DNA of 62,657 nt from an uncultured Candidatus Saccharibacteria bacterium (GTDB taxonomy: Bacteria > Patescibacteriota > Minisyncoccia > Phycocordibacterales > UBA2100). This document shows, in pieces, positions 3,343-57,923 of this stretch (the first letter of the stretch is position 1; every line of letters begins with the position of its first letter). The stretch covers positions 1 through 62,657 of the forward strand of contig CAZJEQ010000006.1 of assembly GCA_964545165.1 (NCBI GenBank), given 5' to 3'. Both the position numbers and the translations under genes were made by a program. The notes beneath the pieces were generated by a model. The model ran no database searches, was not told the DNA's origin, and was given only the letters and a program-made list of their open reading frames with translations.

Positions 3343-3901
3343 CGACCGTCGACGGCTGCGACTCCGGCAACTCTCCCCCATCCACCACCAGATCAATCAT
3401 TCCCACATTCTGCAGAATGTCGGAATGTTCGAATTGCTCGAGAATGGCGGCGACTGAGCGTTGCGGGGTTTGCCCCGCAACGTTCGCACTCGTTGCCGTC
3501 ACTGGCCCGCCAAAAGCTTCGATCATCGTCAGGCAGAATTCACTGTCGGGAATGCGAAAGCCAAATGTATCGATATATCGACATATGCCCGTTTCGAGCC
3601 CCGACTTTTTCTTGCATATAAACGTTACTTTGCCTTTGGGCAATCGCTCGATAAGCAGGCGTACCTCATCGGCTATTTCGCAAAAGCGCTCCGCCATCTC
3701 GATATCACGCACCAGTGCATGGATAGGCTTACCCTCGTCGCGCCCTTTGATAGCGTAGATCTTGTCCACCGCCTCGTTTGAAAAAGCGTCTACCCCGAGC
3801 CCGTAGAGCGTGTCGGTCGGAAAAAGCACTACCCCACCTGCCTGGAGGGTCTCAGCAGCCTTCGCCGCCGCGCCTAAGTTACGGGCAGCAAGTGTTTCCA
3901 T
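3242..3901 (-). CDS. tsaC: L-threonylcarbamoyladenylate synthase (Sua5/YwlC/TsaC family)
   Basis: GGVVLFPTDTLYGLGVDAFSNEAVDKIYAIKGRDEGKPI is the family signature. Start set to ATG 3901 (METLAARN), because the upstream part of the ORF overlaps tRNA-Val. Confidence 0.85.
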   Translation of the reverse strand: METLAARNLGAAAKAAETLQAGGVVLFPTDTLYGLGVDAFSNEAVDKIYAIKGRDEGKPIHALVRDIEMAERFCEIADEVRLLIERLPKGKVTFICKKKSGLETGICRYIDTFGFRIPDSEFCLTMIEAFGGPVTATSANVAGQTPQRSVAAILEQFEHSDILQNVGMIDLVVDGGELPESQPSTVVSFAEHHPVILREGAVSAAAVWNALRSLDLAAG

Positions 3902-4126: not shown

Positions 4127-4151
4127 CTCTTTCTCCTCTTTCTAACGGCCA

Positions 4152-4160
4152 CACTATAGC
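4152..4160 (-). promoter_or_regulatory. extended -10 box TGcTATAGT (a second TGcgTATAGT lies at 4071-4080)
   Basis: The minus strand reads TGCTATAGT and TGCGTATAGT, each upstream of one tRNA-like repeat copy. Confidence 0.45.
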
Positions 4161-4190
4161 AAAAAGCACACTATTTTGGTAGCAGAGCGC

Positions 4191-13514: not shown

Positions 13515-14387
13515 CTACTCCTCCATTAATTCCATGCGATAGATGTCGAATGAGTTCTCCCCTTCAAACATATCCGAGGGATTTGGCAGATACCGACGGC
13601 GGCTCGCGATCTCAGCGGTGGCATCGTTAATCAAGCGATGGAAGACGCGGAATTCATCAGTGAATTTCCCAAAGTCGATCGCGTATTTGCGTACCTGCGC
13701 GGCACCATCTTTATTCTTCGATGTCTTACACTCGACGACGATGAAGCGCTTGATGGGCTTGCCATAGAGTTTGCCGATCGTGTAGTAGTTGAAAAGCGCC
13801 TGCATCAAGAAGAGTGTCTTGGCACCCTTATCTTTGGAAAACGACGCGACGAATTTGTGGTCGACAATATCGAGCGCTCCTGGATTCCCCCGCGATTTCA
13901 CCACGAGATCCGATATCGCTTTGATCGGTAGCGCGAGCCCCTCCACCTCTGCGCTCGCGACGACCTCGACGCCCACCACATCATGCTTCGGCGGCCGCGC
14001 GAGGTAGAAGCCGACCGCGCGCAGATATTTCTCCTCCATATCCTGGCGCATCTTTTTGCGCGCGAGCTTGGAGCGGGCCTTGTCCATATTGATTTCAAAA
14101 TCCGGGACGGCGCGCAGATATTCGAGCCCAAGCTGTATGGCACCCTCCTTGGGCACGCCGCCGTAGAAATGCTGCAGCGCGACGTGGCCCGAGCGACCAA
14201 TCACCGATGAGGGATTTGCCGGATTGTCGTAGATCTTTTCGACATAGCGCTTGTACCAGGCGAGTGGGTTGCGCAGGAATGCCATGAGCGACGAGTGGCT
14301 CCAATGCTTTATCGGCAAGACCAGATCTGCGATCGGCTCAATCTTCGTCACTTTTGTACTGCTTTTGCGCCGTTTTTTCACCGCCAT
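13515..14387 (-). CDS. PD-(D/E)XK nuclease superfamily protein (RecB/Cas4-like fold)
   Basis: AISDLVV...LDIVDHKF...LFLMQALFNYY...FIVVECKTSKN gives a D...D-x-K / E-x-K plus Q-x3-4-Y arrangement typical of PD-(D/E)XK nucleases. Lys-rich N-terminus. Confidence 0.6.
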   Translation of the reverse strand: MAVKKRRKSSTKVTKIEPIADLVLPIKHWSHSSLMAFLRNPLAWYKRYVEKIYDNPANPSSVIGRSGHVALQHFYGGVPKEGAIQLGLEYLRAVPDFEINMDKARSKLARKKMRQDMEEKYLRAVGFYLARPPKHDVVGVEVVASAEVEGLALPIKAISDLVVKSRGNPGALDIVDHKFVASFSKDKGAKTLFLMQALFNYYTIGKLYGKPIKRFIVVECKTSKNKDGAAQVRKYAIDFGKFTDEFRVFHRLINDATAEIASRRRYLPNPSDMFEGENSFDIYRMELMEE

Positions 14388-14406
14388 GAGACAATCGTAG
14401 CATCGA

Positions 14407-14435
14407 TTGACACTCTATGATTTGTATTGTACAGT
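14407..14435 (+). promoter_or_regulatory. promoter TTGACA-17-TACAGT, overlapping a divergent TACAAT
   Basis: TTGACA 14407-14412, 17-nt spacer, TACAGT 14430-14435. The minus strand reads TACAAT at 14430-14425, facing the nuclease gene. Confidence 0.55.
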
Positions 14436-14469
14436 CGAATTCGTTTTGTCGTCACTCGGAGGAAAGCCG

Positions 14470-15069
14470 ATGTTGAAGCTGTTTTATCCAAGCTACCGCT
14501 GGACCCTGTGGGGATCGAGCCTGGTCGTCTTCGTGCTCGCCTGCCTCTTGTGGCGGGTCGGCTGGTCCGACTGGATCAATGGACCGGTCATGGAAGCCGA
14601 GAGCACCGGTGACTCGTTCGCGCGCACGTTCGGATCGTTTGGCCAGATACCCTACAGCACGTCGGTTGAACGCGCAGGCGGCGTCACCGGCGGCAGCCTC
14701 GTCGCGATGCTGGTCGCATCGCTTCTCGTCTTCTTGCTCTTCAGGTGGCCCAACAATCGATTGCGTTGGGTCGCCGTGATCAAGGGGCTGTTGCTGTCGC
14801 TCATCGTCTTCGCGCTGCTTTATCTCTTGTGGCTCGGAGCCACACAGATGATGCTCGGCTGGACAATGAGGGCATCGATCAGCGTCGACAACGTCTTGGT
14901 CCGCATGGGTGCGTGGACTGCGTACCCCGACATCAAAAAGATGTCCGAGGTAGGGCCGACGGTCCTCGGCCACATGCTGATCTACTTGGCCACGCTGACG
15001 CTGACATTGTTCATCTTTTGGGTCATCGCCCGCTTCTGGGTCGCGATGACCGCCGACCGCGACCGCTAA
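14470..15069 (+). CDS. integral membrane protein (about 199 aa, 5-6 TM)
   Basis: Start set to ATG 14470 after GGAGGAaagccg. The TTG start in the ORF track lies inside the -35 box. Confidence 0.6.
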   Translation: MLKLFYPSYRWTLWGSSLVVFVLACLLWRVGWSDWINGPVMEAESTGDSFARTFGSFGQIPYSTSVERAGGVTGGSLVAMLVASLLVFLLFRWPNNRLRWVAVIKGLLLSLIVFALLYLLWLGATQMMLGWTMRASISVDNVLVRMGAWTAYPDIKKMSEVGPTVLGHMLIYLATLTLTLFIFWVIARFWVAMTADRDR

Positions 15070-15121
15070 CGAATCAATAGGAAAGGAGGCACCAGATGAC
15101 AAGACGCGCACCTTCGACAGG

Positions 15122-15157
15122 AGCCCGGGATCATTGACCCGGGCTTCTACTTTTTTA
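15122..15157 (+). terminator. rho-independent terminator
   Basis: AGCCCGGG-atcattga-CCCGGGCT followed by tctacTTTTTT. Confidence 0.7.
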
Positions 15158-15179
15158 TACGACGCGGTAGCATACGCAG

Positions 15180-15464
15180 GTGAAGAAATTCGAGATCGAA
15201 GGCAAAGTGTGGCGCTACCAGGGCGAGAGCCCCTGGCATTTTGTCTATGTGCCGGAAAAGCTCTCGCGACAAATCAAAGATACGGCACGCGCGAGTAAGA
15301 ACGGCCTCGTGCGGATCAAGGCGACGATCGGCGACACCACTTGGACGACCGCACTCTTCCCTACCAAAGACGGTCCGTACCTCATCGCTGTCAAAGCACA
15401 GGTGCGTGAGCGCGAGGTGATCGACAATGGCGACAAGGTCAAAATCTCCGTCACGCTCCTTTAA
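15180..15464 (+). CDS. DUF1905-family protein
   Basis: 94 aa, GTG start. W.YQGESPWHFVYVP...VRIKATIGDTTWTTALFPTKDGPYLIAVKAQVRE...GDKVKISV matches the DUF1905 pattern as I remember it. Confidence 0.7.
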   Translation: MKKFEIEGKVWRYQGESPWHFVYVPEKLSRQIKDTARASKNGLVRIKATIGDTTWTTALFPTKDGPYLIAVKAQVREREVIDNGDKVKISVTLL

Positions 15465-15468
15465 TTTG

Positions 15469-15510
15469 CCTGCAGATATAAATGTGCGATCGCACATTTA
15501 TATCTGCAGG
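15469..15510. repeat. 42-bp perfect palindrome
   Basis: CCTGCAGATATAAATGTGCGA|TCGCACATTTATATCTGCAGG (21+21, no mismatch), placed between the DUF1905 gene and the cassette array. Confidence 0.95.
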
Positions 15511-15611
15511 GTGCATGAGGCAAAAGAGAGCATTTTTTGAGGATTGGAATGGGAATAAAGCCTCATGTATAGTGCCCCCAGCGGCTCATCCAGAGCCAAT
15601 GAGGATCAGAG

Positions 15612-15884
15612 ATGTCTCAAACAGGACCTGAGGTTATCGGGAAAGTGCTCGATGAGCTCGATGCGGCCATCGCCCAGGATCGCCGATCGGAGCTCAAGCC
15701 TGAAAACGAGCACGTGGTTGAATTCATCGCCCTCATGTGCGGTGAGGCTCGCAAGCATTACAAGAGCGGCCACTATGTGATTGCGGCAATGCAAACGGGC
15801 GCTGCTCGCGGCATCGCCGTGCAGATCAAGCTGTTGTCGAACGATCTGCTCGAGAGCGATCATACCGCTCCTGCTACGGGATAG
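15612..15884 (+). CDS. hypothetical protein (90 aa)
   Basis: ATG preceded by GAGGAtcagag. A TGTATAGT extended -10 box lies about 35 nt upstream. Helical, no recognisable family. Confidence 0.55.
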   Translation: MSQTGPEVIGKVLDELDAAIAQDRRSELKPENEHVVEFIALMCGEARKHYKSGHYVIAAMQTGAARGIAVQIKLLSNDLLESDHTAPATG

Positions 15885-15893
15885 GAGGACGTT

Positions 15894-16070
15894 ATGCCAA
15901 GTATCGAGGCGATGGCACGGGCCATCGCCGAGAGCGATGGCAATGGCCTTGAGGCGGAATTCAAAGAACAGCTCTACCGTCGCCTGGTGCAACTCGGCCA
16001 CGATGCGCCCCTACGTCTCGAAGGGCGGTACGCGGCCTTCTTGTCACCGCCCAAGGAAGAGGCATCGTAA
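15894..16070 (+). CDS. hypothetical protein (58 aa), not in the supplied ORF track
   Basis: Read by hand: atAGGAGGacgttATG, giving MPSIEAMARAIAESDGNGLEAEFKEQLYRRLVQLGHDAPLRLEGRYAAFLSPPKEEAS, TAA at 16068. Starts 10 nt after the stop of the 90-aa ORF. Confidence 0.5.
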   Translation: MPSIEAMARAIAESDGNGLEAEFKEQLYRRLVQLGHDAPLRLEGRYAAFLSPPKEEAS

Positions 16071-16192
16071 CCTTTCCTCGAAGAGAGGTTCCAACGCTAG
16101 CGCGGCCGGAAGACATGATTGTCGCCGGCCGTTTCGTATACATTGACCGCTCCCTACATTTTTGGGATGGTGAGGATCGCAGAGGAGGCACC

Positions 16193-16633
16193 ATGCCGAG
16201 AATCCGTTTGATGCGCAAGGCCGACATCCCCACCATCGTAGGCATCGTCGAGCAGAACTACCAGTCCGCTACGGCGAAGCTCGCGAGAAAGGAGCTGGCG
16301 GCAATGTTTAAGCCAGCATTGATTCGGCCGACGTACATCGTCGCGACAGACAAAGGCCGCGTCGTCGGTGTCGCAGGCTTCGTCGGATCGTGGAGCGATT
16401 TTCACGTCACTGAGATCTTCTGGGTCAATGTCGAGCCGAGCCGCCAGCGGCAAGGCATCGGCAAGAAACTGCTCAGCTGGATCATTCAGCGCTTGTACGC
16501 CAACAAAGCCGTGCATCTGCTGGAGCTCACGACAAGCATTCCGAAGTACTATCGCAAGAATTTCGGCTTCGTGACGGTCCGTATCTTCGGTCCAAAGCGC
16601 CGGCACAAAATGGTGCTCGATGTGATGAAGTGA
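16193..16633 (+). CDS. GNAT-family N-acetyltransferase
   Basis: 146 aa from ATG 16193 (gcAGAGGAGGcaccATG). Acetyl-CoA motif VNVEPSRQRQGIGKKLL. Confidence 0.8.
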   Translation: MPRIRLMRKADIPTIVGIVEQNYQSATAKLARKELAAMFKPALIRPTYIVATDKGRVVGVAGFVGSWSDFHVTEIFWVNVEPSRQRQGIGKKLLSWIIQRLYANKAVHLLELTTSIPKYYRKNFGFVTVRIFGPKRRHKMVLDVMK

Positions 16634-16644
16634 ACGAGTCTCGT

Positions 16645-16670
16645 GGCCGGTCCCCCAGGACCGGCCTTTT
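16645..16670 (+). terminator. terminator of GNAT cassette (junction module)
   Basis: GGCCGGTCC-ccca-GGACCGGCC-TTTT, immediately followed by GCATaaaTTGACG. Confidence 0.75.
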
Positions 16671-16731
16671 GCATAAATTGACGTCACCGTGAGAGCGAAT
16701 AAGATGCGCTGAGGCAACAACGGGAGTAGCT

Positions 16732-16968
16732 ATGACTGCGATGAATTTCGTCAGACTGAAGGGTAAGTTTCGCGCACGCCGGGGCGAGACGCGCCTCCGC
16801 ATCGAGCTCGATCGTCCGTACGAGACCCATGAATATGCGACGCTCGCCGACGAGCCGCAGGGTCTCGGTATCGTCTCGTCCGCCGGCCGCTACGCCGAGG
16901 GCCAAGAGGTCACGATCAAGCGAGTCATGCTGTCTCGCGCTTCCTTGATTGCGCACGAGATCGCCTGA
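16732..16968 (+). CDS. hypothetical protein (78 aa)
   Basis: Own promoter TTGACG-16-TAAGAT, SD acGGGAGtagctATG, and terminator at 17008-17042. Confidence 0.55.
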   Translation: MTAMNFVRLKGKFRARRGETRLRIELDRPYETHEYATLADEPQGLGIVSSAGRYAEGQEVTIKRVMLSRASLIAHEIA

Positions 16969-17007
16969 TCGGCAGCATCGACCCACACTGATCGCACATT
17001 CATCCGT

Positions 17008-17042
17008 GGCCGGTCGCACCATCTCAGGTGCACCGGCCTTTT
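17008..17042 (+). terminator. terminator (junction-module type)
   Basis: GGCCGGTcGCACC-atctca-GGTGCACCGGCC-TTTT, followed by GCAT. Confidence 0.7.
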
Positions 17043-17055
17043 GCATATAAAAACG

Positions 17056-17089
17056 AAAAGGCCTGTCTTCTGCGGACAGGTCCTTTTTT
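17056..17089. terminator. bidirectional hairpin
   Basis: AAAAGGCCTGTC-ttctgcg-GACAGGTCCTTTTTT. Serves the convergent minus-strand pair. Confidence 0.65.
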
Positions 17090-17107
17090 GTCTTGCGACA
17101 AGGTCGC

Positions 17108-17443
17108 CTACTTCTTGTAGACGGGGCTGATCACGATGTCCCCGCGAATTCGCTCGAAGGCTTCGCGCGACATCGTGAACGCATGATCGACGCGGGAGTT
17201 GCCCCAGACGTGCATCGCTTCGCGCAGATTTTTCACGACGAACTGCTTGCCGTGATGGTCCGTGACGATTACGACGGCGTCGTCTTCGGCATCGGCGATG
17301 CGCTTCTTGAACAGCACGCGCAGCTTCGCCATGACCTCATCGCGAGGCAGGGTACTGCTCGCGACATCCTTATGGAATGTTATTCCGAGCTGCATCAGTG
17401 CGGCACCGATCACGGCGTCGGAGCCTGTACGAATCTCATACAT
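17108..17443 (-). CDS. hypothetical protein (111 aa), paralog of 17494-17814
   Basis: Start ATG 17443 after ttGGAGGAcgaagacg. The C-terminal half aligns with the upstream neighbour (see findings). Confidence 0.6.
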   Translation of the reverse strand: MYEIRTGSDAVIGAALMQLGITFHKDVASSTLPRDEVMAKLRVLFKKRIADAEDDAVVIVTDHHGKQFVVKNLREAMHVWGNSRVDHAFTMSREAFERIRGDIVISPVYKK

Positions 17444-17493
17444 CGTCTTCGTCCTCCAAAAGGGCATATGATCTTCTAGATCGTGTCGGTGGT

Positions 17494-17814
17494 TCAGGCC
17501 GCCTGGCGAAAACTGGCGATCTGGATGTTGCCGCGATGCGCCTCGAGCGTGGCGCGCGAGACGGCGATGACGTCCTTGATTCTGAGCTGGTTGCGCCACA
17601 CATAGAGCGCTTCCGCCATGGAGCGCACTTCGTGGTTCACTTCCTTGTTGTCGACCAACAAGATCACGGCCTCGGGCACCGCGAACGCGCGATTGAGCTT
17701 CGCCGTTGCATTGGTGCGGCAGTCGAGCTCACCCTTTGTCGGCAGTGCGCCGAACACTGTGACGCTCTGCTGGGCCAATACGGAGCCAACGAGCGAGTTT
17801 GACGGATACAGCAC
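17494..17814 (-). CDS. hypothetical protein (106 aa), paralog of 17108-17443
   Basis: GTG start 7 nt after GGAGGA. Promoter-like TTGACG-17-TAGCGT lies upstream on the minus strand. Confidence 0.55.
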   Translation of the reverse strand: MLYPSNSLVGSVLAQQSVTVFGALPTKGELDCRTNATAKLNRAFAVPEAVILLVDNKEVNHEVRSMAEALYVWRNQLRIKDVIAVSRATLEAHRGNIQIASFRQAA

Positions 17815-17918
17815 TTTCAGATCCTCCAGCGAACCTAGTCGCTCGAAATACGCTACAACAATTATGAATTATCGTCAAATCGCAGTTTAAGCTCTCCGCC
17901 ACGACCATTTTGCATCAA

Positions 17919-17947
17919 TTGACGAGCATTTATGGGGATGACATAGT
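17919..17947 (+). promoter_or_regulatory. cassette promoter TTGACG-17-CATAGT
   Basis: ttttgcatcaaTTGACGagcatttatggggatgaCATAGT, then AAGGAGaatgcgATG (17975). Confidence 0.6.
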
Positions 17948-17974
17948 ACAGGCCGCGCAACCAAGGAGAATGCG

Positions 17975-18274
17975 ATGGATGACGAAGAACTGGCTCGGTG
18001 GCGAGACCTCCGGGCATCATATGGAAAGGTCCTCCACCCGGATAGACTGGCCGCAATGGGGCCCGGCACGCTCGGCAAGATTCCCGCGCGCGGCACGCTT
18101 GTCTCCGAACTCGCCGCACTTTCGGATCGGCTCCTGAAGTCGCCCAAAGCGTCGGACGAGTCCGACGCGGTCATGGTCGAGGCGATCGCCTTTGGCCTCT
18201 GTGTGGGGATCGGATACGCGGAGCCCGAAGGTATCGTCGACTTTCTCGACAAGATCGGGCTCAGGAATCGATAG
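17975..18274 (+). CDS. hypothetical protein (99 aa), one copy of a domain duplicated in 18477-19094
   Basis: Strong SD. C-terminal segment DAVMVEAIAFGLCVGIGYAEPEGIVDFLDKI resembles two segments of the next gene. Confidence 0.6.
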   Translation: MDDEELARWRDLRASYGKVLHPDRLAAMGPGTLGKIPARGTLVSELAALSDRLLKSPKASDESDAVMVEAIAFGLCVGIGYAEPEGIVDFLDKIGLRNR

Positions 18275-18304
18275 CTTTCTGAACATCCATGCAGCAGATC
18301 ATCG

Positions 18305-18337
18305 TGGCCGGACTCTATCGCCCAGAGTCCGGCCTTT
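18305..18337 (+). terminator. terminator (junction-module type)
   Basis: GGCCGGACTCT-atcgccc-AGAGTCCGGCC-TTTT. Confidence 0.75.
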
Positions 18338-18348
18338 TGCACGCCTTA

Positions 18349-18382
18349 ATCATTCGCCCATTCGCGCGAATGGGCGAATGAT
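18349..18382. repeat. 34-bp perfect palindrome (core repeated at 19149-19176)
   Basis: ATCATTCGCCCATTCGC|GCGAATGGGCGAATGAT. Confidence 0.95.
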
Positions 18383-18418
18383 GCTCTCCGCTGGCCTAGG
18401 CCTGGCCTTTTGCATGAA

Positions 18419-18447
18419 TTGACGAGCATCTATGGGAATGACATAGT
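18419..18447 (+). promoter_or_regulatory. cassette promoter TTGACG-17-CATAGT (copy of 17919-17947)
   Basis: ttttgcatgaaTTGACGagcatctatgggaatgaCATAGT, then GAGGAGaatgcgATG (18477). Lies exactly 500 bp from the previous copy. Confidence 0.6.
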
Positions 18448-18476
18448 GCAGGCCGCGCAGCCTAGAGGAGAATGCG

Positions 18477-19094
18477 ATGTTTAACGATTTCGTGCCCCAG
18501 TCGAAGGATACGCTCAGGGCGCAGCTCGACGCGTGGAATAGTGGCTCAGACCCCGAGGGAATTGTGCCGCTGCCGCCCGCTCTCGCCGGCCAAAAGCTGG
18601 CGACATTGATCCGAGCTGAACACCCGCCTGTCCCTGAGGCCGATCATGATGAGATCCGCGCCATCATGCCGGGTCTGATCGTGCTGAGTGAAAAGCTCAC
18701 CAGCAGCGATGATCTGATGACCCATTGGCATGGCTACGGCCTGATGATGCTGACCACCGGCATCGCGGTCGGCATGCGGCGTGTTCCGCTCGGCGTCTTC
18801 AGCAAGATCCAGGGCGACAACGAGACTGTGGCCGAGCGGCAACTGACGGTGCGAGTCCTCGCCATGCTGCTCTGCGATACCTACCCATCGATCAGCGACG
18901 AGGAGTTCGCCCAGGTAGAGCCGACGATGGTGCACCTCACCGACGTTGGTGAACGGGAGATGCGAGTCGACGACTATCGCATCTGTATGCGGGGCACCGC
19001 GATGCTGATGCTCGCGCTCGGCATCTGCATCGGGCTCCGCAAGATTCCCTTCTCTATCTGGAAGGAATATGTGCCCGCGCACATCGTGGAATGA
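18477..19094 (+). CDS. hypothetical protein (205 aa) with internal domain duplication
   Basis: HWHGYGLMMLTTGIAVGMRRVPLGVFSKI and ICMRGTAMLMLALGICIGLRKIPFSIWKEY are two copies of the motif seen once in 17975-18274. Confidence 0.65.
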   Translation: MFNDFVPQSKDTLRAQLDAWNSGSDPEGIVPLPPALAGQKLATLIRAEHPPVPEADHDEIRAIMPGLIVLSEKLTSSDDLMTHWHGYGLMMLTTGIAVGMRRVPLGVFSKIQGDNETVAERQLTVRVLAMLLCDTYPSISDEEFAQVEPTMVHLTDVGEREMRVDDYRICMRGTAMLMLALGICIGLRKIPFSIWKEYVPAHIVE

Positions 19095-19105
19095 TCTTTG
19101 GCAAC

Positions 19106-19136
19106 GGCCGAGCACCAGCGTGTGCTCGGCCGTTTC
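19106..19136 (+). terminator. terminator
   Basis: CGGCCGAGCAC-cagcgt-GTGCTCGGCCG-TTTCG. Confidence 0.7.
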
Positions 19137-19148
19137 GAATATCCGGCT

Positions 19149-19176
19149 ATTCGCCCATTCGCGCGAATGGGCGAAT
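19149..19176. repeat. 28-bp perfect palindrome (second copy)
   Basis: ATTCGCCCATTCGC|GCGAATGGGCGAAT, followed by gatgctccccgc as in copy 1 (gatgctctccgc). Confidence 0.95.
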
Positions 19177-19251
19177 GATGCTCCCCGCCTGGCGAAGGCC
19201 CGGCCTTTTGCATGAATTGACGAGCATTTATGAAGGAGTAGCATCAGTGGC

Positions 19252-20253
19252 ATGGAATTTATTGCCTACCGAGTGTTCAGTGCAGAATTGAAAAGAATTG
19301 AACAACTTTCTCTCATTACACCGTTTGCATTTGGGGCAACGCGAGCAGCTCTTGTTCAGAGTGTGCGCGATAAGAAATTAGACCTCGACCAGGAGATCAT
19401 GATCGACGGCGAGGCTGGCGAACGCCTTCCCGTCAAGCAGTTTCTTCACCGGCTAGATAGTCAGGCGCCTCGTTACCAGCGCGAACTTCTCTTTACGCGA
19501 CTTATATCCGCCCTGGAGGTATACCTGATCGACCTGATACGCGAAATGGCAACATCTGTTCCTAATGTATTTGAATCGGACGATCATTTAGACGTGTCTC
19601 GACGTGAACTTTTTTCATTCCAAAATATGAGAGAACTCCTTATGTACGTCGTGAACAAAGATTGCCGAGCGCTCAGCAGCGGCGGATTTAACGAAATTAC
19701 AAAATATTATAAGAATAAATTGGGCATCGATTATCGACCACTTACACCAGGAATTAATGTGCTACAGGAATACCACGATCGACGACATTTGCTGGTGCAT
19801 AAACTTGGACAGACTGATGAGGCTTACAGGCACAAGTATTCATCGGATGCAAAGAAAATCAGCATCGATTCCGCATATCTTCGCGGCGCAATTGCGAACA
19901 CTCGAGCTTTTTCCACGGAATTGAACAACCTGATAATGCAAAAGATGCTTGGGGTTCCGCCGAAAAGTACCGACGCCTATCGCGGAATCTGTATTTTGTT
20001 TTATCAAGACGAATTGCCGGAATTCTTGAAACCTGATTCTTCCTTTAGACACGGCGGTATTGAGATAGCTTTGTCTACAATAATGCTCCGCCATGAATTA
20101 AATAAAAATCGCGTCACCATGGCATTTGAAGGTGAACGCGCACCGATAGAATCCTTTGCTCAAACGCTCGCAAGCGCACACCGTAATGGCATCGTGAGAA
20201 TCGACTACGTAAATCCGAAGAATCTCTTTCCTAGAGATGTCCAGATATATTGA
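19252..20253 (+). CDS. hypothetical protein (333 aa), AT-rich, with HEPN-like Rx4H motif
   Basis: EYHDRRHLLVHKLGQ contains R-x4-H. An upstream helical segment LISALEVYLIDLIREM is present. Codon third positions are visibly A/T-rich, unlike the neighbouring genes. Confidence 0.7.
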   Translation: MEFIAYRVFSAELKRIEQLSLITPFAFGATRAALVQSVRDKKLDLDQEIMIDGEAGERLPVKQFLHRLDSQAPRYQRELLFTRLISALEVYLIDLIREMATSVPNVFESDDHLDVSRRELFSFQNMRELLMYVVNKDCRALSSGGFNEITKYYKNKLGIDYRPLTPGINVLQEYHDRRHLLVHKLGQTDEAYRHKYSSDAKKISIDSAYLRGAIANTRAFSTELNNLIMQKMLGVPPKSTDAYRGICILFYQDELPEFLKPDSSFRHGGIEIALSTIMLRHELNKNRVTMAFEGERAPIESFAQTLASAHRNGIVRIDYVNPKNLFPRDVQIY

Positions 20254-20339
20254 GAAATTCAACTAGTAGCTGCGGAGTTGCTTGGCGCGTTCGCCCGCCT
20301 CGCGTCGACGAGCAACGCGAGTCGAGGCGGGTGGAATCG

Positions 20340-21593
20340 TCAGTAGGAGCGCAACTGCTTTGCTCGCTCATGGAATCGAATTCTTTCCAGGGCCTTTGCT
20401 TCAATTTGGCGGATGCGCTCGCGGGTTACGCCGAATTCTCGGCCGACTTCTTCGAGGGTAAAGCAGATGCCCTCCGGCGTGAGGCCGTTGCGCATTTCGA
20501 GAATCTTGCGCTCCTTGGGCGAGAGCTCGTCGAGGATGGTACCCATCTGTTCGTTGAGAATACGGCGGGATGCGTCTTGATCGGGGCTCGCGATAGTGTC
20601 GTCGGCGATAAATGAGCCGAGGGTCGATCGCTCGTCATCGTCTTCACCGACAGGTGATTCCAATGAGACAGTGTCCTGATTGATCTTCTGAATAGTGTAA
20701 ATCTTTTCGACTTCGATACCCATTTCTGCGGCGATCTCTTCTGGGAGCGGATCGCGGCCGAGGTGCTGGGAGAGCTCGCGCACCTTCTGCTTGTATTTCG
20801 CGATGGTCTCCACCATGTGCACCGGGATGCGGATGGTGCGCGACTGGTCGGCCAGCGCACGGGTGATGGCCTGGCGGATCCACCAGGTAGCGTAGGTCGA
20901 GAATTTAAAGCCTTTGGTCCAGTCGAATTTGTCGACGGCCTTGAAGAGGCCGAGGTTGCCCTCCTGAATGAGGTCGAGGAGGGTGAGATCGGGGCTGCGG
21001 TTTACGTACTTCTTCGCAATAGAGACAACGAGGCGGAGGTTGGAGCGGGCGAGAATGCTACGAGCCTCCTCGTCCCCTTCCAAGATGCGCTGTGCGAGCT
21101 CACGCTCCTGCTGACCATTGAGAAGCGGATACTGACCGATCTCGCGGAGGTACATCTGCACCGAGTCGTAATTCGAATCAGAGCGGCGATGCTGGAGCTT
21201 CTTCTTCTCGAGGACTTCCGTCGCCGAGGTATCTTCGAGCATGCCACCGCCTTCGAGCACGTCGATGCCCGCCGTCGCAAATTTCTCATACATCTGCTCG
21301 AGCAGCTCGACATTGTCTTCGATCGTCGGGAATTCGCGGATGATTTCGTCGTACGTGATGTAGCCACGCTCACGACCGAGCGTGATGAGCGCCTCTACTT
21401 TGTCGGAGGCCTTGCCCTTGGTTGGGCCCGATTGATTGCGGAGCGGGACCTTCTTCTTGGCCACTACCTTGCGATTGGCGCGCGCGGTAGCAGAGCTGCG
21501 CTTCTGGATCTTGGCGCGGCGGACAGGCTTTTTCGCGCGGGAGACGCGCGAAATCTTTTTTGCGGGCTTTTTCTTTTTGGAGGTCTTTGCCAT
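20340..21593 (-). CDS. rpoD: primary RNA polymerase sigma factor
   Basis: Region 2 ([37 protein letters not shown]), region 3, and region 4 ([20 protein letters not shown]). Lys/Arg-rich N-terminus. Confidence 0.95.
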
Positions 21594-57518: not shown

Positions 57519-57923
57519 ATGGAACTCGAGCTCTGGCAGCGCGCGCACCCACTTACGCGCTCACTGATCGCTATCGTCGGCATACTCGTCGCCCTGGCCT
57601 ACGCTGAGCGCCACGGGAATGAAAAGATGCGTCTGCGCGATGAATTTCGGATTGCAGACATCTACGACGACAATCGGATCGTGCTGCAGCGTATCGTCAA
57701 CGGCGTAAAGTCCGAACACGTCATCAGCGCCTATCAGCTCGGGCTGCAACCGCACGAGGTGAGTCATCTGGATTGGAGCGTGCCGCTCCAATGCGGTGCC
57801 GAGTGGCGCCGCGGATTTATCTCACAGCAGCTCGGTCACCGCCACCTCTACGAGCATCGGTGGACATGCGACCGATCTCTGAGCATCTTCCTGAAACCCG
57901 GCGTACGCCGGGTTTCTCGTTAG
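57519..57923 (+). CDS. hypothetical protein with N-terminal TM helix (134 aa)
   Basis: TGTATAGT extended -10 box at about 57466-57473, SD GGGAGA, and terminator GAAACCCGGCG-tacg-CCGGGTTTC at the 3' end. Confidence 0.55.
   Translation: MELELWQRAHPLTRSLIAIVGILVALAYAERHGNEKMRLRDEFRIADIYDDNRIVLQRIVNGVKSEHVISAYQLGLQPHEVSHLDWSVPLQCGAEWRRGFISQQLGHRHLYEHRWTCDRSLSIFLKPGVRRVSR

Follow-up and report, generated by a model that had tools for sequence, protein, structure and literature searches.

An rpoD-adjacent hotspot in a Kaiserbacteria-like bacterium carries a cassette-like stack of small orphan genes with repeated, putatively reused expression signals

The stretch of DNA analyzed here (the window) comprises 62,657 nucleotides (nt) of contig CAZJEQ010000006.1 from assembly GCA_964545165.1, deposited as an uncultured Candidatus Saccharibacteria bacterium. 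Between a DUF1905 gene and rpoD, the gene for the main sigma factor, it contains an array of small genes separated by repeated hairpins and promoter-like sequences. This array is a cassette-like, fast-turning stack at a hotspot, and it is not a known cassette system. The explanation that we favor, with slightly better than even confidence, is that the array forms the core of a hypervariable accessory islet, in which expression punctuation is reused, a selfish palindrome has settled, and new genes enter at the tail of rpoD. The host genome is that of a Kaiserbacteria-like bacterium of the candidate phyla radiation (CPR); its RpoD protein is 79-94% identical to proteins from metagenome-assembled genomes of Candidatus Kaiserbacteria and other Paceibacteria. 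CPR bacteria (Patescibacteria) have tiny, streamlined genomes, which are usually described as poor in mobile DNA.

The array lies in a conserved hotspot with hypervariable, lineage-specific content. We compared 80 fetched loci from relatives (fetched loci carry L numbers) and scored the gene order from rpoD to the nuclease gene. In 22 of the 80, rpoD is followed on the same strand by a homologue of the PD-(D/E)XK nuclease gene, in the backbone order dnaG-rpoD-gap-nuclease. The gap in these 22 related Patescibacteria measures 54 to 9,049 nt, compared with 5,952 nt in the window, and its contents are unrelated. Since gap size and contents differ among collinear relatives, the locus is a hotspot with lineage-specific content; it is neither invariant nor syntenic, with different contents in every relative. 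Proteins of the insert, including memb220 and DUF1905, were absent from the loci of the 80 relatives, except for the orf111/orf106 family in L005. The features that frame the array are as follows.

13515-14387, minus strand: PD-(D/E)XK nuclease gene.
14388-20339: lineage-specific insert of 5,952 nt between the nuclease gene and rpoD; the array is its inner part, or core.
15180-15464: DUF1905 gene, inside the insert and to the left of the array.
20340-21593, minus strand: rpoD, the main sigma factor gene.

Nine open reading frames (ORFs) with plausible starts lie between the DUF1905 gene and rpoD. The initial annotation had correctly described a small-gene array at this place, with a count of ten. 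The nine genes form a stack of six or seven independent transcription units, as predicted from their signals, and encode tiny, lineage-restricted proteins.

15612-15884, plus strand: orf90, no family match; GC content at third codon positions (GC3) 0.66-0.68 together with orf58.
15894-16070, plus strand: orf58, no family match; forms a two-gene unit with orf90, and the 9-nt spacer carries GGAGG.
16193-16633, plus strand: GNAT acetyltransferase of 146 aa (Pfam PF00583, E 7e-12).
16732-16968, plus strand: orf78, an orphan with no family match; GC3 0.76.
17108-17443, minus strand: orf111, paralogue of orf106, in one unit with it.
17494-17814, minus strand: orf106, paralogue of orf111, same unit.
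17975-18274, plus strand: orf99, an orphan.
18477-19094, plus strand: orf205, an orphan.
19252-20253, plus strand: orf333, apparently foreign; the unit adjoining rpoD.

Profile searches with Pfam, NCBIfam, PHROGs and PADLOC recognized only DUF1905 and the GNAT protein among the insert genes tested. As proposed, the GNAT protein is thus the only array product with a recognizable family, and the cassette ORFs do not fall into ordinary housekeeping families. Its PHROGs match is a generic acetyltransferase family, and no close homologue (E <= 1e-10) other than itself was present among 5.8e9 proteins. Further matches were weak: orf205 to a PHROG of unknown function (E 0.0055) and orf333 to PADLOC (E 0.011). 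For orf205, the same 5.8e9 proteins contained only two relatives, both from other samples (L001 and L002); look-ups of the exact orf205 and RpoD sequences retrieved no recorded protein. The orf111 and orf106 proteins are 28% identical (BLASTP E 7e-10) and therefore paralogues; their family has 10 representatives in 1.84e9 proteins, two of them from the window itself.

Composition and translation signals set the last gene apart from the other eight. GC3 is 0.66-0.81 in eight of the nine array genes versus 0.71-0.75 in the housekeeping genes measured, which is a native composition. In agreement with the initial annotation, which had called the last cassette compositionally foreign, orf333 has a GC content of 0.45 and a GC3 of 0.45; because of this difference from the other eight genes, it appears to be a recently acquired foreign gene. 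The same eight genes have GGAGG-type leaders, and orf333 is again the exception. A different, leaderless-type signal had been proposed for the surrounding housekeeping genes, and at least a dozen backbone genes indeed have a TANNNT hexamer 6-8 nt 5' of the start codon, in a leaderless layout. This suggests widespread leaderless expression in the genome, unlike the Shine-Dalgarno-led islet genes. Examples of TANNNT without a Shine-Dalgarno sequence are the starts at 483, 2646 (minus strand), 9178, 14387 (minus), 15180, 35400 (minus), 40270 (minus), 42197 (minus) and 42514.

The sequences between the units are repeated far beyond chance, at the places where junction copies had been annotated. 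Hairpins of the form GGCCGG…CCGGCC, the sequence CCGGCCTTTTGCA and the motif TTTTGCAT-N3-TTGACG have 4-6 copies each at 16.1-19.25 kb and none elsewhere in the window; the motif is thus not the window's generic signal. GGCCTTTTGCA has five exact copies, all at 16663-19212 (0.89 expected; 0 of 100 shuffles reach five). GGCCGG-N4-30-CCGGCC has four, all at 16104-18334 (0.31 expected; again 0 of 100 shuffles reach the observed count), and TTTTGCATNNNTTGACG, which equals TTTTGCAT-N3-TTGACG, has four exact and two degenerate copies, all at 16132-19222. Folding energies of the junction hairpins are -20 to -28 kcal/mol (z -3.4 to -6.6), and a scanner found 14 terminator-like sites where 4.8 were expected. 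Sigma-70-like sites (TTGACG, a spacer of 16-17 nt, then CATAGT, TAAGAT or TAGCAT) are present at four junctions, 5' of orf78, orf99, orf205 and orf333. These predicted sites and stable hairpins agree with the proposal of autonomous units, each consisting of promoter, Shine-Dalgarno leader, gene and terminator.

16104-16148, plus strand: junction copy 1 (degenerate), GGCCGG…CCGGCC hairpin followed by GTTTCGTATACATTGACC; -21.3 kcal/mol.
16641-16705, plus strand: junction copy 2, CGTGGCCGG-hairpin-CCGGCC TTTTGCAT AAA TTGACG-16-TAAGAT.
17005-17046, plus strand: junction copy 3, terminator half only, CGTGGCCGG-hairpin-CCGGCC TTTTGCAT; -24.5 kcal/mol.
17902-17974, plus strand: putative promoter module 5' of orf99, CCATTTTGCAT CAA TTGACG-17-CATAGT, with a short leader containing AAGGAG.
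18303-18341, plus strand: putative terminator after orf99, CGTGGCCGG-hairpin-CCGGCC TTTTGCAC; -22.4 kcal/mol.
18402-18476, plus strand: putative promoter module 5' of orf205, 87% identical to 17902-17974.
19103-19136, plus strand: putative terminator after orf205, a hairpin different from the rest, CGGCCGAGCAC…GTGCTCGGCCG TTTCG; -28.4 kcal/mol.
19200-19251, plus strand: hybrid promoter 5' of orf333, with the upstream half and -35 element of the module (CCGGCCTTTTGCATGAATTGACGAGCATTTATG), then TAGCAT 7 nt before the ATG, in a leaderless layout.

The junction is a composite of three things, namely terminators of a shared style, a propagated promoter and a widespread palindrome. The initial annotation had described one reiterated junction; the repetition stands, the single element does not. 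It had also not covered the terminator at 18303-18341, palindromes of 28-34 nt, and a duplicated rpoD tail at 20263-20339. Three hairpins have both flanks in common (CGTGGCCGG … CCGGCCTTTTGCA) and variable cores, and each lies 3' of an unrelated gene, while the CCGGCC copies just 5' of the promoters at 18385 and 19183 form no significant hairpin. Because related islets use the same GC-rich stems (GGCCGG, GCCCGG or CGGCCG, then TTT), the terminator part of the junction is partly a style common to related islands. There are five GGCCGG…CCGGCC hairpins in L005, within 10 kb after rpoD, and two in L203. The islets of these two relatives have different genes and the same punctuation style, GGCCGG hairpins together with the 28-nt palindrome described below.

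Repetitive extragenic palindromic (REP) sequences, bacterial interspersed mosaic elements (BIMEs) and SPRITE are short, GC-rich hairpin repeats at gene ends, and they can act as terminators. REP/BIME systems have many copies dispersed over the genome and a RAYT (HUH Y1) gene with the repeats on either side. REP/BIME and terminator-like repeats such as the pneumococcal SPRITE are listed by name in an earlier publication (PMC10969869). The window resembles them in its GC-rich hairpins at gene ends, and one relative, L022, has a RAYT-like gene with flanking hairpins in the same gap. The window differs in having only 4-6 copies, all within 3 kb of the 62.6 kb, and no RAYT was found in it: the L022 protein gave no tblastn match to the window, nor was a RAYT-like gene found beside palindromes. 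The L022 gene (11150-11960) encodes a RAYT-like HUH (Y1) transposase inside the rpoD-nuclease gap, flanked by CCACTAGGCAAGACCTAGTGG-type hairpins, and RAYT-like genes are also present in L019 and L011. REP/RAYT-type systems therefore exist in Kaiserbacteria-like genomes, in one case in the same hotspot.

The promoter half of the junction points to reuse. Its core is CCGGCC-TTTTGCAT-N3-TTGACG (the motif can also be given as CCGGCCTTTTGCAT-N3-TTGACG), and we infer promoter activity from a consensus match, TTGACG-17-CATAGT with TG upstream. The copies before orf99 and orf205 had been noted as near-identical and exactly 500 bp apart. We find 90% identity over 58 nt between 17908-17965 and 18408-18465, at a distance of exactly 500 nt, and 87% over 76 nt up to the ATG. 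Paralogy of the downstream genes was ruled out as the source of this likeness: orf99 and orf205 align with a BLASTP E of 0.056 over 9 residues and an hhalign probability of 1.8%, and paralogy involving orf90 was ruled out as well. Duplicated blocks of 58-80 nt have 90-98% identity and include the pair 18352-18430 and 19149-19228. In front of orf333, the upstream half of the promoter (the palindrome through TTGACGAGCATTTATG) is copied over about 80 nt at no less than 95% identity and joined within the spacer to TAGCAT-7-ATG. The putative promoter of orf333 is a visible chimera with its breakpoint inside the spacer.

Outside the window, the module accompanies orf205. It is 77.5-84% identical to the regions 5' of the orf205 orthologues in L001 and L002, compared with 71.5-77% identity for the orf205 coding sequence and 62% at third codon positions (window versus L001). 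Judged by these values, selection acts on the module, which has remained with orf205 over a nucleotide divergence of about 25%. The spacer between the -35 and -10 elements is conserved beyond what sigma-70 requires. A search of 2.04 Mb of fetched loci, for the most part related CPR DNA, recovered the module only in the window, L001 (three copies within 1 kb) and L002, apart from one match each in L003 and L046. Exact scanning for TTGACGAGCAT-N8-ATGACATAGT gave no match in 185,579 species genomes or in the JGI metagenomes, in which the lineage is poorly sampled. An operator dyad in the spacer, CTATG-N7-CATAG, was considered and dropped, as by eye it is not kept in other copies.

Promoter reuse is a described phenomenon, and putative mobile promoters have been reported before unrelated genes (Nijveen, Matus-Garcia, van Passel 2012, PMC3575422). 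The copies before orf99 and orf205, with 90% identity over 58 nt and no detectable homology of the genes, show the degree of likeness used to recognize such reuse (about 90% over at least 50 nt before non-homologous genes), and a second, chimeric copy stands before the apparently newly acquired orf333. The window differs in that its copies lie together in a single array of 3 kb, where they are joined to a terminator half, and in that other species have likewise kept the module before orthologues.

The third component of the junction is a perfect palindrome with the consensus ATTCGC-NN-ATTCGCGCGAAT-NN-GCGAAT, 28-34 nt long in the window. A different, longer palindrome marks the left edge of the array.

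15469-15510: 42-nt perfect palindrome directly after the DUF1905 stop codon, with the center GCGATCGC.
18349-18382, no strand assigned (28-mer at 18352-18379): palindrome copy 1, ATC-ATTCGCCCATTCGCGCGAATGGGCGAAT-GAT.
19149-19176, no strand assigned: palindrome copy 2, without the left outer stem.

An exact scan found the 28-nt palindrome in at least 120 metagenome contigs (L086-L205 were fetched) with GC contents of 33-59%; a scan of viral contigs gave no match. Palindrome-bearing loci that can be placed belong to Paceibacteria/CPR, and members or variants also occur in the rpoD-downstream region of L005, L009, L011, L203/L192 and L145. Among the matches listed, the NN positions are complementary in 104 of 112 unique copies, and the stem extends beyond the 28-mer by a mean of 3.1 bp of copy-specific sequence. 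An alignment of 104 copies from these matches shows 95-98% pairing at the two NN pairs, together with 43 and 61 double-sided changes, and none of 500 shuffles attained the covariation score observed. Seventeen of the 112 unique copies listed lie in-frame in long open frames of housekeeping genes (ArgRS, Tgt, Dus, MnmA, a MurC-like ligase and glycosyltransferases), where they are always read as xS(L/P)IRANxR(I/M) or xFA(N/Y)SRELAN. Three MnmA orthologues have the insert at two sites, each lacking the insert of the other. At the insert, solved homologues are shorter, by a gap of 6 residues in ArgRS and by 6 residues in Tgt.

By analogy, the palindrome appears to behave like a very short Rickettsia palindromic element (RPE). 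RPEs are repeated, about 100-150 nt long, and are found between genes and in-frame in housekeeping genes (PMC10969869). The 28-nt palindrome shares the repetition, the intergenic and in-frame positions and the presence or absence among orthologues. It differs in being far shorter (28-40 nt versus about 100-150 nt) and perfect with a co-varying stem, and in its occurrence in metagenome contigs with a GC content of 33-59%, which are CPR where placeable. We found no paper describing it. A role as a transcription factor operator was judged unlikely because of the in-frame genic copies and the co-variation of the non-conserved positions.

Several further observations concern palindromes. A second, related type (…TATAGGCTNATTCGTGCGAATNAGCCTATA… / ATCGGCCTATTCGTGCGAATAGGCCGAT, with the common core ATTCG(C/T)GCGAAT) often lies beside copies of the first, for example in L001 (901-930), L107 (about 2180-2210), L156, L011 (10854-10881) and L009 (13024-13051). 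L161, L098, L156, L122 and L190 contain two or three palindrome copies each, about 410 nt to 2.6 kb apart and mostly 450-730 nt, and in L161, L098 and L156 the flanks are similar as well. Small genes surrounded by reiterated junctions, as in the window, may be an arrangement that recurs. The 42-nt palindrome folds at -32.3 kcal/mol (z -8) and occurs only once among all fetched loci; its Rfam matches were at chance level, far below the gathering score, and no Rfam family was found otherwise. Of the four perfect palindromes of at least 18 nt in the window, three lie inside the insert.

Duplicated rpoD tails are the insertion footprints observed in relatives. In the window, the functional gene is accompanied by a second, interrupted tail.

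20263-20339, minus strand: second rpoD tail (last 12 codons) interrupted by a hairpin, CGATTCCAC, 38 nt, GAACGCGCCAAGCAACTCCGCAGCTACTAG; RFH…ERAKQLRSY followed by the stop.

Here CGATTCCAC (RFH) follows directly after the rpoD stop codon, then the 38-nt hairpin and then GAACGCGCCAAGCAACTCCGCAGCTACTAG. The second and the functional tail are identical at 28 of 39 nt; each of the 11 differences is synonymous, and a TCC/AGC serine switch is among them. The second tail therefore evolved within a working rpoD, and so either it or the functional tail derives from another lineage or from an older allele. L005 has a second tail (1585-1668) in the same layout, also with synonymous differences only, and in both L005 and L207, as in the window, the second tail carries a different synonymous allele (AGY versus TCN serine codon). 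In three other relatives the repeats enclose genes: in L207 (643-1945), rpoD precedes a gene of 88 aa and one resembling orf111, after which come the conserved hairpin and another copy of the final 44 rpoD codons, so that a 132-nt repeat surrounds these two genes; in L029 (770-1260), a single 124-aa leaderless gene lies between 47-nt repeats; and in L007 (3050-3510), a 106-aa gene lies between repeats of about 39 nt. These three inserts contain one or two small ORFs and no integrase. Shorter copies of the tail are present 0.8-1.0 kb 3' of rpoD in L011 and L043. The gene bracketed by rpoD tails in L007 (3145-3465) has two paralogues just 3' of rpoD in L003 (4012-4260 and 4613-4861), so the closest relatives share cassettes and have duplicated them.

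Since duplicated rpoD 3' ends flank the inserts in relatives, the most likely entry site of new genes is the rpoD 3' end and not the junction. Entry at this site would also explain why the foreign-looking orf333 is the unit beside rpoD. Of the earlier idea that cassettes are added or swapped at the junction, the turnover at a hotspot is borne out and the entry site is not. Islands and elements that target the 3' end of a tRNA or conserved gene, including tycheposon-type arrays, are known integration hotspots. The rpoD locus shares with them conserved flanking core genes with hypervariable content in between, and direct repeats of the target 3' end that bracket the inserts in L029, L007 and L207. 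It differs in its target, rpoD, in inserts that consist of one or two tiny genes without an integrase, and in variable repeat lengths (29-132 nt). This variable length fits homology-driven recombination as well as or better than a site-specific process.

Together, the above observations are consistent with the following scenario. Each unit would have its own sigma-70-type promoter, Shine-Dalgarno leader and intrinsic terminator, while many backbone genes would be leaderless. The promoter module would have been copied before unrelated genes by local duplication or illegitimate recombination and then kept by selection; for orf99 and orf205, the copied stretch would extend through the -10 element and leader. 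Such reuse would likely cause the units to be expressed alike and yet be insulated from each other. The two islet palindromes would be copies of a selfish hairpin-forming element that is widespread in metagenomes. New DNA would enter by Campbell-type recombination or by illegitimate recombination anchored by rpoD homology; either route would duplicate the rpoD tail and push older units away from rpoD, a direction of stack growth that we infer, like the recombination mechanism itself, from the arrangement of the repeats. On this reading, the locus illustrates how orphan genes turn over at a defined hotspot next to an essential gene, how newcomers are expressed by reusing an existing promoter/terminator module, and how a short selfish palindrome settles even inside essential genes. 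The CPR-wide in-frame palindrome and the rpoD-tail duplications are noteworthy in their own right.

Several points weigh against this scenario. Promoters and terminators are consensus matches only, and the confinement of the motifs to the islet holds for the 62.6-kb window only. The two rpoD tails of the window bracket just the 38-nt hairpin and not the present cassettes, and a scan of the window junctions found no rpoD-tail remnant beyond the copy beside rpoD. No recombinase domain was found by Pfam in 23 distinct window ORFs profiled. Finally, the three hairpins with shared flanks (CGTGGCCGG … CCGGCCTTTTGCA) after unrelated genes are not fully explained by simple duplication, which leaves room for a site-directed process.

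An integrase-less or trans-mobilized gene capture at the last 40-130 nt of rpoD in Kaiserbacteria-like CPR bacteria is a reading that we consider possible although improbable. Small self-expressing cassettes would integrate as circles or fragments, duplicate the tail and stack outward; the GGCCGG hairpins and the ATTCGC palindrome would act as signals for processing or recombination, and the window would show a mature stack. If the rpoD-tail duplications reflect directed capture, they would represent a new way for members of an uncultured radiation to gain genes, one that is accessible to experiment. The orphan cassettes, with the conserved RX4H protein orf333 among them, would be candidates for host-interaction or anti-phage functions.

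It is unlikely that the junction of hairpin and TTTTGCAT is itself a recombination site, folded like an integron attC and served by a recombinase encoded elsewhere, at which cassettes are inserted, excised and shuffled. The three hairpins with conserved outer flanks and variable interiors 3' of unrelated genes would fit this idea, as would the three module copies in 1 kb of L001, the abundance of perfect palindromes in the islet, and the islets of relatives with wholly different contents and a common punctuation style. We see no sign of recombination at the junction, however: the module remains attached to orf205 across about 25% nucleotide divergence in L001 and L002, and the insertion footprints in relatives are rpoD tails and not junction modules. 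No integrase or transposase was found among the ORFs profiled, as already reported in the initial annotation.

Comparison with integrons leads to the same assessment. The attC sites of integrons are imperfect hairpins of 57-141 nt with RYYYAAC … GTTRRRY core sites at the 3' ends of cassettes. The cassettes are promoterless and read from a common Pc promoter, and an IntI-type tyrosine recombinase adjoins the array, except in clusters of attC sites lacking integrases (CALINs). The window resembles integrons, and in particular CALINs, in its array of small, mostly one-way orphan genes, in hairpins conserved outside and variable inside, and in having no nearby integrase. Its hairpins are only 22-31 nt long and have no R''/R' core sites: GTTRRRY is present once, in orf90, and RYYYAAC three times, none of them at a junction hairpin. 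In addition, each unit has its own predicted promoter, strong hairpins separate the units, two genes (orf111 and orf106) point in the opposite direction, and the duplicated rpoD tails in relatives are not products of attC x attI recombination.

Similarly doubtful is an ordinary co-regulated cluster without mobility, in which sites of one regulator or sigma factor are kept by selection next to standard terminators. Such a cluster would account for the apparent purifying selection on the module before the orf205 orthologues, for spacer conservation beyond the need of sigma-70, for the native composition of eight of the nine small genes and for the true paralogy of orf111 and orf106. Convergence, however, cannot yield 90% identity before non-homologous genes over 58 nt that include the spacer and leader, and the chimeric orf333 promoter, broken inside its spacer, speaks against such a cluster as well. 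Moreover, the insert as a whole is missing from each of the 80 relatives, at a site that is a hotspot.

The array could also be the remnant of a phage or mobile element beside rpoD (a moron or defense islet) with the junction as its early-promoter and terminator punctuation, but this is rather improbable. Small orphan genes with their own promoters and terminators are typical of phages, and duplicated target-gene tails of integrative elements; homologues of orf333 lie among restriction-modification, HicA, NYN and NucS-like genes, and the gap of L022 contains a RAYT-like gene. Against this, integrase, capsid and replication genes are absent, the GC3 of eight of the nine small genes resembles that of the host, no DNA match was found in 50,697 phage records, and the palindrome is absent from viral contigs. 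The PHROGs results (a generic GNAT family and the match of orf205 at E 0.0055 to a family of unknown function) are uninformative, and PADLOC gave only the weak orf333 match at E 0.011. The comparison to phage morons made in the initial annotation does not fit because there is no phage context: the array does consist of promoter-gene-terminator units, one of them compositionally foreign, but it is flanked by rpoD and a nuclease gene, two genes with a collinear arrangement in 22 relatives. Chance likeness among generic GC-rich terminators and consensus promoters can practically be dismissed, even though CCGG-type GC-rich stems are common in related islets and TTGAC is the -35 consensus, since none of 100 shuffles reached the observed motif counts, blocks of 58-80 nt are 90-98% identical, and the module is conserved across species.

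Apart from the protein itself, the family of the apparently foreign orf333 comprises 37 homologues; they come from Paceibacterota and Bacteroidota and lack Pfam domains. The family has an invariant E-H-D-R-R-H-x3-H block (EYHDRRHLLVH-type, RX4H). The predicted structure (pLDDT 90.6) has no fold match in the PDB at E < 0.001. Homologue loci were fetched as L083, L084 and L085. One homologue lies among EcoRI-type restriction-modification, HicA and NYN genes, another beside an MmeI/Eco57I-type methyltransferase and a NucS/YhcG-like nuclease, and orf333 is a candidate for a new defense-island protein. The only feature that suggests a HEPN protein is the invariant RX4H motif.

The orf111 family is accompanied by a conserved hairpin. 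The predicted structure of orf111 (pLDDT 81.5) likewise has no PDB fold match at E < 0.001.

17060-17083: two-way hairpin GGCCTGTCTTCTGCGGACAGGTCC between the convergent genes orf78 and orf111.

A hairpin 3' of orf111-family genes is kept in four organisms, namely the window, L005 (about 4150-4180), L206 (2030-2056) and L207 (1787-1808). On the strand of the gene it reads GGACCTGTCC-GCA(A)GAAG-ACAGGCC, and it is near-identical including the loop, though the proteins are only 35-40% identical. This conservation seems to exceed the need of a plain terminator.

Two palindromes lie elsewhere in the window. One, at 57893-57916, is an unrelated perfect palindrome of 24 nt. The other, at 3399-3426 near tRNA-Val, is a degenerate version of the 28-mer with 7 mismatches, and almost none of this kind were found in random shuffles. 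In L206 (1652-2392), an orf111-family gene adjoins a DUF1905 gene, as in the insert of the window, and the linkage may be recurrent.

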